From the NCBI RefSeq assembly GCF_004010195.1, contig NC_057731.1:17946720-18010457 (forward strand): 63,738 bases of DNA, given 5' to 3'. A program made the position numbers and the translations under genes. This document shows positions 368 to 63,738 of the stretch, one piece after another (position 1 is the stretch's first letter; each line of letters begins with the position of its first letter). The DNA comes from Chiloscyllium plagiosum. Taxonomy: Eukaryota. The notes beneath the pieces are model-generated. The model saw only the letters and a list, made by a program, of their open reading frames with translations. It did no database searches and was not told the origin of the DNA.

Positions 368-478
368 AGCCCCATTTATTTCTCCACCCCCGAGGCTCTC
401 AGCCTCATTCCTGATGAAGGGCTTTTTCCTGCACCTCAGATGCTGTCTGACCTGCTGTGCTTTTCTAGCACCCCACTG
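368..478 (+). mobile_element. Penelope-like short element, family A, with internal deletion
   Basis: cattcctgatgaagggctttt...gatgctgtctgacctgctgtgcttttctagcac matches family A copies at 24136, 58858 and 63003; the gcccgaaacgtcg half of the ribozyme is missing. Confidence 0.7.
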
Positions 479-1330
479 CAGAAAAAAATTAACCTGCTGC
501 TTTTTTTTGGTGAGAGTGTGTGGGGTCCAGTTATTGGGAGGAAACAGGAAGACTGAAGTACTTTTATTCTCAAATCCAGAGGAGAGGATATGGTCAGATC
601 CCAGAAGTGAGGAATCTTTGACTGTGGTCTGGGCGAGGTGTTATCTCAATGGTGGGGTTGGGGGTTCAGTGTTTGGCAAGTGGATAACTTGGTGAACTAT
701 GAGGATGCATCCCTACTCTTTCTGACCCAGAACATCACCCTGCCTCTCAAGCTGTAAGGAACTGAGATTTGGTAACCTCAAACTTATTGAGGTTGAATAC
801 ATAAGACAAGTTAAGTGTGAAACGTCTGAGCTCAATAAACTATTCAAGTGGGAATCTGCTTCCTGTAGCAGGCCTGCCACCTGTCCACAGATAGAAAGTT
901 TGGGATCTAGTTTGAAATTTTAAAAATGTATGTATTGTGTTCAGTCTAATCCACTTGTATATGCTTTTCAGCATTAGCCACGTTATGTAGCTATTAAGAC
1001 CAATACAGCATAAAGATGGATACATGCAAGCAAATCAGGAGGAGTTTAGCAATTAATATTTCGTATCACTGTGGTTAATTTATATGCAAAACAAAACTTT
1101 GGAATTTAGTTTAGAAAGTAGCGTGAACAGGGTTATAAGAGTTATTTATTTTAATTTAGTAAAACCTTATCAGATAAAAGTTGCATTTCTGTTTAAAGCT
1201 TTTTGTCTCCCTATAATGTTTTGATGTAATTGTTTAAAAATCACTGTCAAAGTGAAAGCAATGAATGTGTAGTACAATGATGATGCATGGCAGAGTATAT
1301 ATATCCAGCTAACCATTTATTTAATCGTAG

Positions 1331-1454
1331 CTATTCACCAGTGTCTTTGGTGTGGGATTGAAGACTGCCGATAAATGGTACGTACAAGGATTTCGTACAT
1401 TAGAGGAAGTAAAAACATCCAAGGATTTGAAATTTACCAAAATGCAGAAGGCAG
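1331..1454 (+). CDS. DNTT: DNTT (terminal deoxynucleotidyl transferase) internal coding exon, equivalent to mammalian exon 6
   Basis: AG acceptor at 1329-1330 and GT donor at 1455. The 124 bp translate as [41 protein letters not shown](G), matching the Pol X HhH region of TdT (human [24 protein letters not shown]...FTRMQKAG). Not in the ORF track. Confidence 0.93.
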
Positions 1455-3215
1455 GTAATGTCTGGAATTGTATATTGTTCAATTATTCTCGACTGTCATA
1501 ACTTCATGGTAAAAAAGTTATGCATAACTGTACTTCTAATTGCCTTTTATTTCTCAGGTATTTCCATGCTGTACATATGTGAAACTAAGAAGCAAAGGTA
1601 AAACTTGTGTCCAAACTGTATAGGACTGAATTCATATCATGATTTTCATTGGTTTTACTCACCGGTTGTGCTAGGCTTCCATGATCCTGCTCAAAATTAC
1701 CATCACCTGACTTCAATTTCCCTCCCCAAATTGGCAGGACCACTCCTGAACAATCCCCCATTCTTGCCCAGTAGATATACAGATTGGCTGAGCCTCAGTT
1801 CCAGGACTGTTTCTGTGCCAATGACTGTGGTTACTGTAGCTCTCCATGAATTCCTAGGTGCAAATGGCTCTGGGCTGGGCTGCTGGCTGGATAGCTCCAT
1901 GATTCTTCTGAAGAGAAGTGAGGGCCTTGTCCAGGCTTCCAGTAATTCTGTTTCTGTCCCAAACCTTTACCTGAGTTAAATCTTAGGATCAGCAGAGGCC
2001 TTCAAATAAATTTTCCATTTTGTCCGTCGGGCCCTTTTTTGGAAGTGATTCTGTATTGGAGGCACTGCAGTGTGTCATGACTTTTCTGGTTGACTTCTGT
2101 GTGGTGTTTCAAGTCATGTTTTTATAATGACCTCAACCTGGGAAATTGACTCGGGGGCTGCGGTGGGGTAGGAGATGTAAACAGAAGACTTACCTCACCA
2201 GAATATTGGGGAATCTTCTCTTTGTCTCTAAATTAACATGGTGGTTACATCTTCTCATTGTGGAATTTCTGTTTCAACCTGTAACATTTTGACGTAACTT
2301 GCAGCATAGCAATACATTAAATTATACTGATATTGCTAATTATGTTGAAATAGAGTAATTGTACAATTAAATCATCAAGGTGGTTAATTTGTTTGACTTT
2401 GATTGCTAGCTAAGACAATCTCATCAGGTTTCATCAATGAGCAAAAAGATTATTCACTATGAATGATCTTATTCTCTGATAAGTGGCAAAATGGTTATTA
2501 ACCACTGCTACACCAACTTAAACTGTATCTCATTTAAAAGCAAATGCCCATGCATTCGAGCACAATTAGGAAGAGGCAAGATTTACAGCTCTGTGGCAAT
2601 GATATGGGCGGCAAAAACAAACATAGACAAAATGGAAAAGTCCCGTGGATCAAGATTCCAAATCACAAGAGTGGAATAGGGGACGTTCTCCACAGTACTT
2701 GGTAGCTTTCTGCTGACTATGATCATGTTATTGCCCAGTAACCAATCAGTTAGACTCCAGGTCCTTACTGAGTTACCACTTCATCTTTCAGAATCTTTTC
2801 GAATGTTGTCCTTTACTCAGAGAGAGAGGTTGTTTCCTAGTTAACTTCTCCATCACTGTGAGGACTTTTTCCCCTGCCCCACGGCAGAGATGCGTCTTTG
2901 GTGTAGGTTTCTTTAGAGGCTCTCCTTTGACAACTAGTAGGTTTTTCTTTTTCAGGCTAAAGAGAGCTGTCTTTTGCTGCAGACTTCTTGGCAGTCTGTT
3001 TTCAAATGCCTCACTCACAGGTCTGTAGCAAACTGGAAGCAAAACCCAAAGCTGTTGCCAGGCAACTTTCAGCCCAAGGCTCTTTCCACAGGCTGAACCA
3101 ACAAAAGTGTCAAATCCACCTTACTTCTCATCACACTGCTTCAAGCAGTATGTACAATGAATAAACCTACTGCTGCTTCTTGTTGTGTAAGGAGAGCTGG
3201 AGAAAGACAGGGTAA

Positions 3216-3556
3216 GGGGCGGTATGGTGGCTCAGTGGTTAGCACAGCTGCTTCACACCACCAGGGATGCGAGTTCAATTCTAGCCTCGGGCGACTGTCT
3301 GTGTGGAATTTGCACATTCTCCCTGTGTCTGCGTGGGTTTCCTCCCACAGTCCAAAGGTGTGCATGTTAGGTGAATTGGCTAAGCTAAATTGCCCATAGT
3401 GTTGTCAGGGATGTGTGGGTTAAGTTCATTAGTCAGGGGTAAATGTAGAGTAGTAGGGTAATGGAATGTATCTGTGTGGGTTACTCTGCATAGAATTGGT
3501 GTGGACTTGTTGTGCCAAATGGCCTGTTTCCACATTGTAGGGTCTCTATGATTCTA
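3216..3556 (+). mobile_element. HE1-like tRNA-derived SINE
   Basis: A box (tggctcagtgg), B box (gagttcaattc), body gtgtggaatttgcacattctccctgtgtctgcgtgggtttcc and a CR1-like tail ending ctatgattcta. Confidence 0.85.
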
Positions 3557-3929
3557 GACCCCAAGTCCTGGTAACTCACCAGAGAAGGGGAGCTGACTGG
3601 GGCTGAGCTATGGAGCTCCCACAAGCTCACAATGATCCCCTATTTGTCTCTGGCAACATGCACTCTGAGGTTATTACAAAGTCCCAGGACACCAGTTTTG
3701 TTTGTACTATGCTTTTATTGAACAGGTTGTAAGATGACTCCTTACATTGAGTGCCTCCCGGCAGAGGTCATATGACTAGGAACCACATTAATGTGATCTC
3801 CACCCTTAAAAACCCTTCAAAAGAAATCAAATTTGCTTGCACTACCATTTACACTATGAGTTACCCAAATTATGCACTATGCAAACTGTTCACATGTATT
3901 TTCAAAATTGTTTGTTATTCTAGTTAGCC

Positions 3930-62442: not shown

Positions 62443-62747
62443 GGCGGCACGGTGGCACAGTGGTTAGCACTGCTGCCTCACAGCGCCAGAGACCAGGGTT
62501 CAATTCCCGCCTCAGGCAACTGACTGTGTGGAGTTTGCACGTTCTCCCCGTGTCTGCGTGGGTTTCCTCCGGGTGCTCCGGTTTCCTCCCACCATCCAAA
62601 GATGTGCAGGGTCAGGTGAATTGGCCATACTAAATTGCCTGTAGTGTTAGGTAAGGGGTATGGGTGGGTTTCGCTTCGGCGGGTCGGTGTGGACTTGTTG
62701 GGCCAAAGGGCCTGTTTCCACACTGTAATCTAATCTAATCTAAATCT
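62443..62747 (+). mobile_element. Young HE1-like SINE
   Basis: CpG-rich head ggcggcacggtggcacagtggttagcactgctgcctcacagcgcc...ggttcaattccc; (taatc)n tail. Confidence 0.9.
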
Positions 62748-63002
62748 ATTGATGAAGGTTGTTTCCTCTCGTGGGGAAGTCTAGGACAAAAGGGCATAAT
62801 CTCAGAAAAAAGGATCACACATGTAAGTCACAGATGAGGAAGAATTGTTTCTCTCAGAGGGTTGTGGAATTTGTTGCTGCAAATGGCTGTAGCAATCGGG
62901 TTATTAATTTTATTCAATGCTGAGATGGACAGATCTTTAGTCAGTGAGGGATCAAAAGTATGGACAAAAGCAGGAAAATGGAGTTGAGGGTTATCAGATT
63001 AG

Positions 63003-63133
63003 AGGTAAAAACAATGACTGCAGATGCTGGAAACCAGATTCTGGATTAGTGGTGCTGGAAGAGCACAGCAGTTCAGGCAGCATCCAAGGAGCTTCGAAAT
63101 CGACGTTTCGGGCAAAAACCCTTCATCAGGAAT
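63003..63133 (-). mobile_element. Penelope-like family A element with near-intact hammerhead (63098-63133)
   Basis: rc AUUC CUGAUGA A GGGU UUUU GCCC GAA ACGU C GAUU. Confidence 0.8.
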
Positions 63134-63530
63134 AGTCTTGATCTCATTGATGGTGGAGCAGACCTGATGGGCTGAATGGCTGTTCCTGTGTCTTAGAAAG
63201 CAGCTTGCCAGTAACTTATTTGGGGCAATTTGGGATGAGTAGTAAATGATGACCAGCGGTTGGAAAACTGCTGTGATTTCATGGAAGAGGCTGCAGATGG
63301 TCCAGCTCTGGATGTAGAACACCTGACTTGAGAATGCATTACGACCTTGACATGACGGCTGTGGTCTGGACTGGCTGGCTGGCTAACAGCAAGGACTCTT
63401 ATTGAGAGAGTGAACACTGCCATCCTCAGACAGCACTTCAGTATGTCTCCCGGGAATGACAGCAACAACCCCTCCACACCACCCCCACCATGTCCTCTTT
63501 ATGGCTGTACCTCTGCAGCTCTTGTAATGT

Positions 63531-63738
63531 AGGTAAAAATAATGACTGCAGATGCTGTAAACCAGATTCTGGATTAGTGGTGCTGGAAGAGCACAGCAGT
63601 TCAGGCAGCATCCGAGGAGCAGTAAAATCGACGTTTCGGGCAAAAGTCCTTCATCAGGAATATAGGCAGAGAGCCTGAAGGGTGGAGAGATACGTGAGAG
63701 AAGGGTGGGGGTGGGGAGAAAGTAGCATAGAGTACAAT
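63531..63738 (-). mobile_element. Longer Penelope-like family A element running off the window, with hammerhead at 63626-63661
   Basis: Highly similar to 63003-63133; rc CUGAUGA A GGAC UUUU GCCC GAA ACGU C. Confidence 0.8.

Follow-up and report, generated by a model that had tools for sequence, protein, structure and literature searches.

Short hammerhead-bearing repeats in the Chiloscyllium plagiosum genome: pseudo-LTR stubs of Penelope-like retrotransposons, probably left by abortive copying of a capped sense RNA

A stretch of 63,738 nucleotides (nt) from the shark Chiloscyllium plagiosum (contig NC_057731.1, positions 17,946,720 to 18,010,457; called the window here, at its full length) is dotted with short insertions built around a minimal hammerhead ribozyme. 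The locus raises two questions, namely what these repeats are parts of, and why so many copies begin just ahead of the ribozyme. To the first, we can answer with near certainty that the repeats are pieces (stubs) of the pseudo-long terminal repeats (pseudo-LTRs, or pLTRs) of at least two Neptune/Nematis-type Penelope-like retrotransposons (Penelope-like elements, PLEs). To the second, the evidence favors the view that the short copies are abortive insertions, in which complementary DNA (cDNA) primed at an internal site ran off the likely capped 5′ end of a sense RNA. The elements are ordinary PLEs, whose basic arrangement has been published (PMC4209133), and what is added here is a reading of the copy ends.

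Positions within a repeat are numbered from C3 of the hammerhead core, set to 0, with the cut site after +27 in family A and after +28 in family B. A strict descriptor of the minimal hammerhead (core, stem II of at least four pairs, GAA, and a self-complementary A..U followed by H) finds four intact copies in the window, at 53337 (minus strand), 53353 (plus), 58946 (minus), and 63129 (minus), together with about 12 more eroded ones. The 7-nt core alone is frequent in the window, which might suggest chance matches to a short motif. This explanation is already refuted by shuffle controls (50 dinucleotide shuffles of the window gave a mean of 0.06 strict matches and a maximum of one), and it also fails against thousands of exact matches to 30–35-mers (855 to 11,771 matches, with reversed-pattern controls at zero) and against the covariation described below; its probability is practically nil. 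A genome-wide scan for the core, proposed in a first-pass annotation of this DNA made from the sequence alone, points the same way: in 10-kb stretches sampled at regular intervals along six large contigs of the genome sequence G000 (100 stretches, 962,553 non-N bases), 50 strict matches occur, versus 0–1 in five shuffles, and extrapolation to 3.56 Gb, from large contigs only, gives ~185,000 intact motifs. A scan of the window with Rfam release 15 returned no hammerhead match at E ≤ 10, only hairpin-type chance matches. The first-pass annotation had counted about 15 insertions; a motif or an eroded copy is present at each of its 15 coordinates, with only four passing the strict descriptor, and several of the listed motifs are two arms of one head-to-head unit (15851/16231 and 53306/53350). 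The motifs of the window make up 14 insertion units.

Clustering of 257 motif-bearing stretches resolved A1, A2, C, and D, which have one common tail downstream of the hammerhead, and B; family D was met outside the window. Of the independent families first proposed, A and C (with D) are subfamilies of a single lineage, while B and E are distinct, and at least two lineages, the A-group and B, were independently amplified, their proteins being only 31% identical. The hallmarks of a minimal type I hammerhead are found in A, B, C, and D: the core, a helix II with G10.1-C11.1, an extra base between 9 and 10.1, a palindrome replacing helix III, and a short helix I. The extra A reported at 9/10.1 holds for these four families and is absent from family E, a separate old family with at least 40 matches, characterized by a 6-nt palindrome and a stem II of 2 base pairs (bp) only; for 18 of the 40 listed copies, ~270 surrounding bases were inspected, and 17 of the 18 have the core.

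Compensatory pairs between families occur in stem I, stem II, and the palindrome, as the differing stems noticed at first sight had implied. Pairs were counted by motif anchoring (a MAFFT alignment of 17 hammerheads set family B one column out of register), with C and D represented by only 11 copies each. In stem I, the 2.1–1.1 pair is C-G in A, B, and D and U-A in C; 2.2–1.2 is U-A in A, C, and D and A-U in B; and 2.3–1.3 is C-G in B, G-C in C and D, and mostly a U.U mismatch in A. Stem II shows G-C and A-U at 10.3–11.3 and C-G, G-C, and U-A at 10.4–11.4, and the center of the palindrome is CG or GC, depending on the family. Minimum-energy co-folding yielded self-dimers through stem II and did not return the catalytic dimer fold. 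If the hammerhead is active at all, the active form would be a dimer of the two copies carried by the full-length RNA.

The parent elements were traced through their open reading frames (ORFs). A PLE-type reverse transcriptase (RT) fragment beside a family A copy led to 36,349 candidates in G000, and 20 10-kb loci were analyzed per protein family, those of the A-group picked for long frames. An A-type hammerhead lies downstream of the RT thumb, on the same strand, in 11 of the 20 loci; a B-type hammerhead lies downstream of the RT, again on the same strand, in 12 of the 20 loci of the second protein family; and family D is linked to an RT/GIY-YIG ORF in four loci. Proteins of the A lineage match RVT_1 and, above cut-off, the GIY-YIG domain PF01541. 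The B protein matches RVT_1, and its GIY-YIG region is recognized by similarity to A only, with no Pfam match; a comparison of the B ORF with solved structures gave no match. Both lineages have a C-x4-CxxC zinc-finger-like linker between the RT and the endonuclease (EN), and a CX2-5CxxC linker of this kind is a Neptune/Nematis feature (PMC8557442). With ORFs encoding RT, zinc linker, and GIY-YIG upstream, the repeats are therefore Neptune/Nematis-type Penelope pLTRs, and the suspected PLE link proved correct: minimal type I hammerheads sit in the pLTRs of endonuclease-bearing PLEs, with RT and GIY-YIG ORFs for A, D, and B. An earlier figure of 38 of 100 loci with ORF homology was discarded as inflated, since the query overran into the hammerhead region.

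One locus, L263, holds a full-length B element, consisting of an inverted truncated copy, a pLTR with hammerhead, a long tail reaching the ATG, a broken ORF, a 3′ untranslated region (UTR), and a second pLTR with a short tail. Direct pLTRs combined with an adjacent inverted, 5′-truncated copy and a tail were met in B, at this locus; for A, the 5′ region was obtained from L004/L041 and L118, and an upstream walk from an N-terminal ORF piece met mostly truncated copies. The family A tail runs on to an ATG ~35 nt further. Because tails lead to the ATG of the ORF in both A and B, the tail is the 5′ UTR. The order along the pLTR is thus a 3′ UTR with a TATA-like box, a start point ~31 nt on, the hammerhead 4 nt (A) or 8 nt (B) later, a poly(A) site (in B), two fixed 3′ ends, and the ATG. 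The L263 locus also includes, at 8770–9723 (plus strand), a 318-aa open frame resembling, by eye, a macrodomain host exon.

Where the copies end was mapped in 230 copies anchored on the tail (+45 to +80), which avoids selection on the core, and aligned to direct-orientation references; family C is under-sampled in this set. These references replaced an all-against-all upstream extension, which inverted copies matching each other had confounded. The 5′ ends concentrate just before the hammerhead, with 84 of the 230 at −9 to +2; elsewhere, 11 fall at −21 to −10, 27 at +3 to +14, and only 6 near the cut site (+25 to +31), and 45 copies extend beyond −21. The 3′ ends are bimodal, at about +76 to +95 (131 short copies) and +118 to +127 (99 long). 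A third of the copies (78/230) make up 39 head-to-head units, 33 of which pair a long tail with a short one, versus ~19 expected if the two were independent. Many junctions have 1–4 nt of microhomology. Two candidate causes of the 5′ boundary were rejected: a splice acceptor (CAG/G ~18 nt upstream in A2), at which no ends cluster, and an alignment artefact from subfamily divergence upstream of a conserved core, which conflicts with flanks that are unique or inverted copies and with abutting target-site duplications (TSDs).

The TSDs were sought by a script (9–21 bp) in 225 copies with enough flank; it considers single copies only and misses TSDs around head-to-head units. It found them in 13 of 83 hot-spot copies, 3 of 53 longer copies, and 3 of 89 shorter copies, with 0/249, 1/159, and 1/267, respectively, in mismatched-flank controls. 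In the window, seven of the 14 insertion units are flanked by TSDs of 11–15 bp, so that the term TSD-bounded, used in the first-pass annotation, suits these seven and does not stand as a general statement. The units are as follows:

371..477, plus strand: eroded family A1 pLTR end that retains the core (at 411), has lost the 3′ half of the hammerhead, and extends upstream to ~−40; no TSD found.
15758..16329, no single strand: family B head-to-head unit; long-tail arm on the minus strand (core 15882), short-tail arm on the plus strand (core 16234), each with 190–350 nt of upstream pLTR.
15758-15769 and 16318-16329: TSD of the preceding family B unit, 12 bp with one mismatch.
24124..24276, no single strand: family A1 unit; inverted long-tail fragment and a short-tail copy from −3 (core 24177, G12 changed).
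24124-24135 and 24265-24276: TSD of the preceding A1 unit, 12 bp with one mismatch.
25504..25660, plus strand: family C copy with eroded core; 11-bp TSD at 25504-25514 and 25650-25660.
40389..40548, no single strand: family A1 unit; 18-nt inverted piece with core (40413, minus strand) joined to a long-tail copy from +9; 13-bp TSD at 40389-40401 and 40536-40548.
43976..44124, minus strand: eroded family A1 long-tail copy with some pLTR upstream and with changes at G12 and in the palindrome; no TSD found.
45963..46041, plus strand: family E copy, from an old repeat family, with the core, a stem II of 2 bp, and a palindrome of 6 nt; no TSD found.
48471..48585, plus strand: family B variant with a short tail and a changed G12 (core 48502), and with an inverted fragment ahead of it; no TSD found.
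53244..53484, no single strand: family B head-to-head unit with two intact hammerheads; the minus-strand one (53337) has a short tail, begins at the predicted +1, and shows an extra G at 53346, and the plus-strand one (53353) has a long tail.
53244-53257 and 53471-53484: TSD of the preceding family B unit, 14 bp with one mismatch.
58845..58960, minus strand: family A1 short-tail copy with intact hammerhead (58914-58950); 13-bp TSD at 58845-58857 and 58948-58960.
59524..59639, minus strand: family C copy, eroded; no TSD found.
61169..61313, no single strand: family A2 fold-back unit of two tails without a hammerhead, absent from the first-pass list; 15-bp TSD at 61169-61183 and 61299-61313.
63002..63134, minus strand: family A2 long-tail copy with intact hammerhead, starting at ~−5; no TSD found.
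63531..63738, minus strand: family A2 long-tail copy; upstream pLTR runs to the window edge; one stem II mismatch.

The fold-back unit at 61169..61313, having no hammerhead, implies that the ribozyme is not needed in the inserted product. Two of the units lie in older repeats. The family B unit at 15758-16329 sits inside a decayed LTR-retrotransposon-like element, whose pol pieces are found at 13842-14222 and 16277-16657 (plus strand; weak Integrase_H2C2 match, E 3.6e-4). The A1 unit at 40389-40548 is inserted into one copy of a SINE-like (short interspersed nuclear element-like) repeat, present at 40549-40640 and in L092 and L096, which we take to resemble the shark repeat HE1.

The boundary just before the hammerhead has several features of a putative transcription start. 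A TATA-like box lies 28–32 nt before a predicted +1 in 9/9 A1, 5/5 D, and 1/3 A2 copies (+1 at −4), and in 11/13 B copies (+1 at −8). In A, B, and D, the predicted +1 is an A in an initiator-like context. Full-length L1 insertions carry an extra, untemplated 5′ G attributed to copying of the cap (PMC9341517), and an extra G is accordingly expected before +1 where RT runs off a capped end as reported for L1. In A1 copies that lack the element's C, the base before +1 is G in 69, A in 18, and T in 13 among 100 matches listed of 4,987. The control one base inward gives C 46, T 40, and G 14 (100 matches listed of 5,351), and one base outward T 92, the element's own base, A 4, and G 4 (100 listed of 11,771). 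Family B behaves alike, with G 71, T 17, and A 12 among 100 matches listed of 165 without the element's C, and T 60, G 25, and C 15 at the inner control (100 listed of 140). Against an expected 26% of G, the enrichment has p ~1e-19 in A and ~1e-20 in B. A G-bearing subfamily is excluded in B: 30 B loci include 18 with the G, and all 18 lack upstream pLTR sequence. In family E, 6 of 17 copies have TATAAA 31 nt ahead of an A at −15, a +1 that was picked after the fact; several of these loci (L331–L348) also have a CCAAT-like motif further up, making E a third, unrelated family with a promoter-like region before the ribozyme.

The same boundary could reflect RNA structure, if RT copying a longer RNA stalled or was released on leaving the folded hammerhead stem I, with microhomology fixing the junction. 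In A, C, and D, the boundary does fall on the 5′ strand of stem I, the commonest B ends fit stem I better than −8, and the 1–4 nt of microhomology at many junctions would be accounted for. However, structure predicts neither a G encoded by neither family, at a single position in two unrelated families, nor a TATA-like box at constant spacing from that G, and in B the G marks −8, which is outside stem I. We consider structure alone a rather unlikely cause.

RNA reads bear on the template itself. They come from a poly(A)-selected single-cell short-read run, X21 (organism C, possibly another species), of which ~2% was read and which informs on the family B pLTR only; a second run, X22, gave no matching reads on the pLTR. 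In X21, 3,163 reads match the B pLTR and 1,006 end in poly(A), 464 after +60 and 542 after +56. These sites lie 11–15 nt past an A(A/T)TAAA hexamer at +40 to +45 and 28–32 nt after the cut site, and of 157 genomic B copies, not one carries an A-run at this position. Accordingly, B RNA can terminate downstream of an uncut hammerhead yet short of either 3′ end; with poly(A) preceding both, those 3′ ends would therefore be copied from the 5′ repeat or from read-through RNA. These data also speak to the rolling-circle model (PMC4209133), by which the template would be a ribozyme-cut or circularized RNA and the short copies its by-products. Conservation of core and stems by covariation across families is in keeping with such a model, and in a full-length RNA, the palindromes of its two hammerheads could pair with each other. 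Yet poly(A) RNA spans the cut site with no drop in depth (1,403 and 1,367 reads on its two sides), the starts near the cut site are the six mentioned above, and a circle has neither an end at −4 or −8 nor a cap. A cut or circular template is thus very improbable for the short copies, and it may still explain longer and tandem copies.

Could the short copies instead be independent, non-autonomous families with masters of their own, moved in trans by Penelope proteins? The first-pass annotation had seen them as retrozyme- or SINE-like families of this sort, and their very high copy number, TSDs, and fixed-looking ends are what such families would show. A preprint derives tandem retrozymes from pLTRs and, in its accessible part, finds them in one cartilaginous fish (10.64898/2026.07.22.740005), and a solo pLTR with its promoter intact might still give rise to RNA and act as a template. 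Against this, short and long (5′-truncated) copies are intermixed on a poorly resolved tree built from 126 alignment columns and 66 A-group copies (45 short, 21 long): length class changes 15 times, versus 18.2 in shuffles, with five changes forced by well-supported branches, and the main hammerhead variants are common to both classes. Neither two 3′ ends nor head-to-head pairing of a third of the copies suits a family with its own master, and copies starting at +1 have lost the TATA-like box. Tandem arrays with a hammerhead per unit were not found in the window. Among the 230 copies, the raw count of same-strand neighbors within 1 kb is 13. For these reasons, the non-autonomous interpretation is not supported, and we give it only a small chance. 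Same-strand family B copies 355 and 565 bp apart (L021/L022; G000:C1:117003097/117003662) are local duplications and possible seeds of tandem retrozymes.

The preferred explanation, by run-off of internally primed cDNA, can be rationalized into a few steps. Transcription would start at the predicted +1. RT would be primed at the target nick, at one of two internal sites in the 5′ UTR, and would run back through the uncut hammerhead to the cap and add a C, the extra G thus being a presumed copy of the cap. The run-off cDNA would then be joined by microhomology to the other target end, often with loss of a few bases. A head-to-head pair would form when both target strands are nicked and each primes one such cDNA, one from each of the two start sites, with microhomology linking the pair; the longer copies would arise, less often, when the cDNA jumps to the 3′ repeat or the template is a read-through RNA. 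The best view of the stubs is that each active subfamily produced them repeatedly, as by-products.

Several observations count against a capped start as the boundary. Family B ends spread over −9 to +1, most of those in a random sample lying at −4 to +1 and not at −8, and the element's C at −9 is kept in 1,015 of 1,180 exact B copies intact to −8. In family A, structure and start site are inseparable, because the predicted start is the edge of stem I. The G is clearly untemplated only in a minority (L279, L286, L291, L294, L322); in most direct-TSD A copies (e.g., L273, L277, L281, L283, L285, L289), it is also in the target and hence acts as microhomology. The A-group box, TTTATC, departs from a canonical TATA, no AATAAA occurs in the A tail, and the script detected TSDs in only 19 of 225 copies. 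The X21 reads may come from host transcripts using the signal, and they list no pile-up of RNA starts on the B pLTR. Lastly, the pLTR layout is not universal: in the Drosophila virilis element, the promoter is internal and TATA-less, and an intron precedes the hammerhead (PMC2377424).

The motifs closely follow those of PMC4209133, which already described minimal hammerheads in PLE pLTRs, dispersed single copies, and opposite-strand pairs. They share with them the lack of helix III, a palindrome at 15.2–16.2, the extra base at 9/10.1, G10.1-C11.1, and the short helix I, as well as many families per genome, mostly single motifs from truncated elements, and pairs on opposite strands. The maximum given there, ~9,000 motifs (Xenopus), compares with ~185,000 extrapolated here, under different descriptors. 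In the portions available, that paper does not map copy ends and favors a cut circular RNA template, and shark or skate terms were absent from two of its supplements that were searched. Up to 120,000 hammerheads are reported for the axolotl (PMC7229834), which makes the number here high but not unheard of.

A closer precedent for the proposed chemistry is the Poseidon element PAc of the green anole (Frangieh et al. 2024, PMC11167929), for which internal priming at two sites, with both strands nicked and extended, was obtained in vitro, using uncut RNA as the main template; cleavage was unnecessary and, where it occurred, protein-assisted. PAc likewise has two fixed 3′ ends downstream of the hammerhead (its ‘tail’). 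Its ATG lies inside the hammerhead and priming falls inside the ORF, whereas here both tails are in the 5′ UTR, before the ATG. The accessible parts of that paper place no RNA 5′ end and describe no stubs ending there.

Insertions of EN-bearing (EN+) PLEs are known to comprise an inverted pLTR, a tail, and an 8–10 bp TSD (PMC3846280, PMC8557442). The copies described here resemble them in 5′ truncation, an adjacent inverted copy, and an optional tail of 30–40 bp (Arkhipova et al. 2013, PMC3846280; Craig et al. 2021, PMC8557442), as well as in TATA and initiator (Inr)-like motifs in the pLTR and the zinc-finger-like Neptune/Nematis linker. Arkhipova et al. explained head-to-head junctions by self-priming on an antisense template, which they favored while leaving the template strand open (PMC3846280, in the sections available). 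Unlike that model, the G at the sense start and the long/short asymmetry point to a sense template primed twice. Non-LTR retrozymes (PMC7229834, 10.64898/2026.07.22.740005) have in common with the stubs a type I hammerhead, pLTR origin, non-coding nature, and high copy number; they are head-to-tail tandem repeats that give circular RNAs, whereas the insertions here are dispersed, single or head-to-head, and have TSDs. The extra G has its counterpart in full-length L1 insertions, where it is attributed to cap copying (PMC9341517).

Outside the hammerhead repeats, positions 6062-8473 (minus strand) of the window hold a piece of a long interspersed nuclear element (LINE), presumably of CR1 type, with a 601-aa open frame (RVT_1, E 1.5e-31) and an internal 153-bp tandem duplication. 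Many shorter copies of this LINE are found elsewhere in the window.

In LTR retroelements, reverse transcription that begins at an internal priming site and reaches the capped 5′ end of the RNA yields minus-strand strong-stop DNA. The stubs, as read here, would span the same two landmarks, with the differences that nicked target DNA would act as primer and that the intermediate would be integrated directly, with no tRNA primer or integrase. A bolder version, which we put forward tentatively and think more doubtful than not, treats the pLTR as a U3-R-U5 unit: a TATA-started capped sense RNA beginning just ahead of the hammerhead would be polyadenylated in the 3′ repeat, shortly past the hammerhead, the target-primed strong-stop cDNA from U5 would have to jump to the 3′ R, the hammerhead would be kept mainly for its palindrome, which would pair R copies to guide the jump, and the hundreds of thousands of stubs would be strong-stop DNAs integrated before jumping. 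We found no paper on strong-stop or cap-marked PLE stubs in a search that was thin on subscription literature and did not include Repbase and Dfam.

On the replication cycle of PLEs, the template strand was left undecided in PMC3846280, as far as its accessible text goes, and cleavage by the hammerhead proved dispensable in the one in vitro study (PMC11167929). A genome with stubs on the order of 100,000 is a record, at single-base resolution, of copying intermediates. For annotators, such stubs are not to be classed as SINEs or retrozymes. For the PLEs themselves, three observations taken together (a cap-type G, in two unrelated lineages, at a start with TATA spacing; a poly(A) site that falls after the hammerhead and ahead of the priming sites; and the pairing of long with short tails) speak for a sense template that is capped and uncut and is primed internally on both strands.

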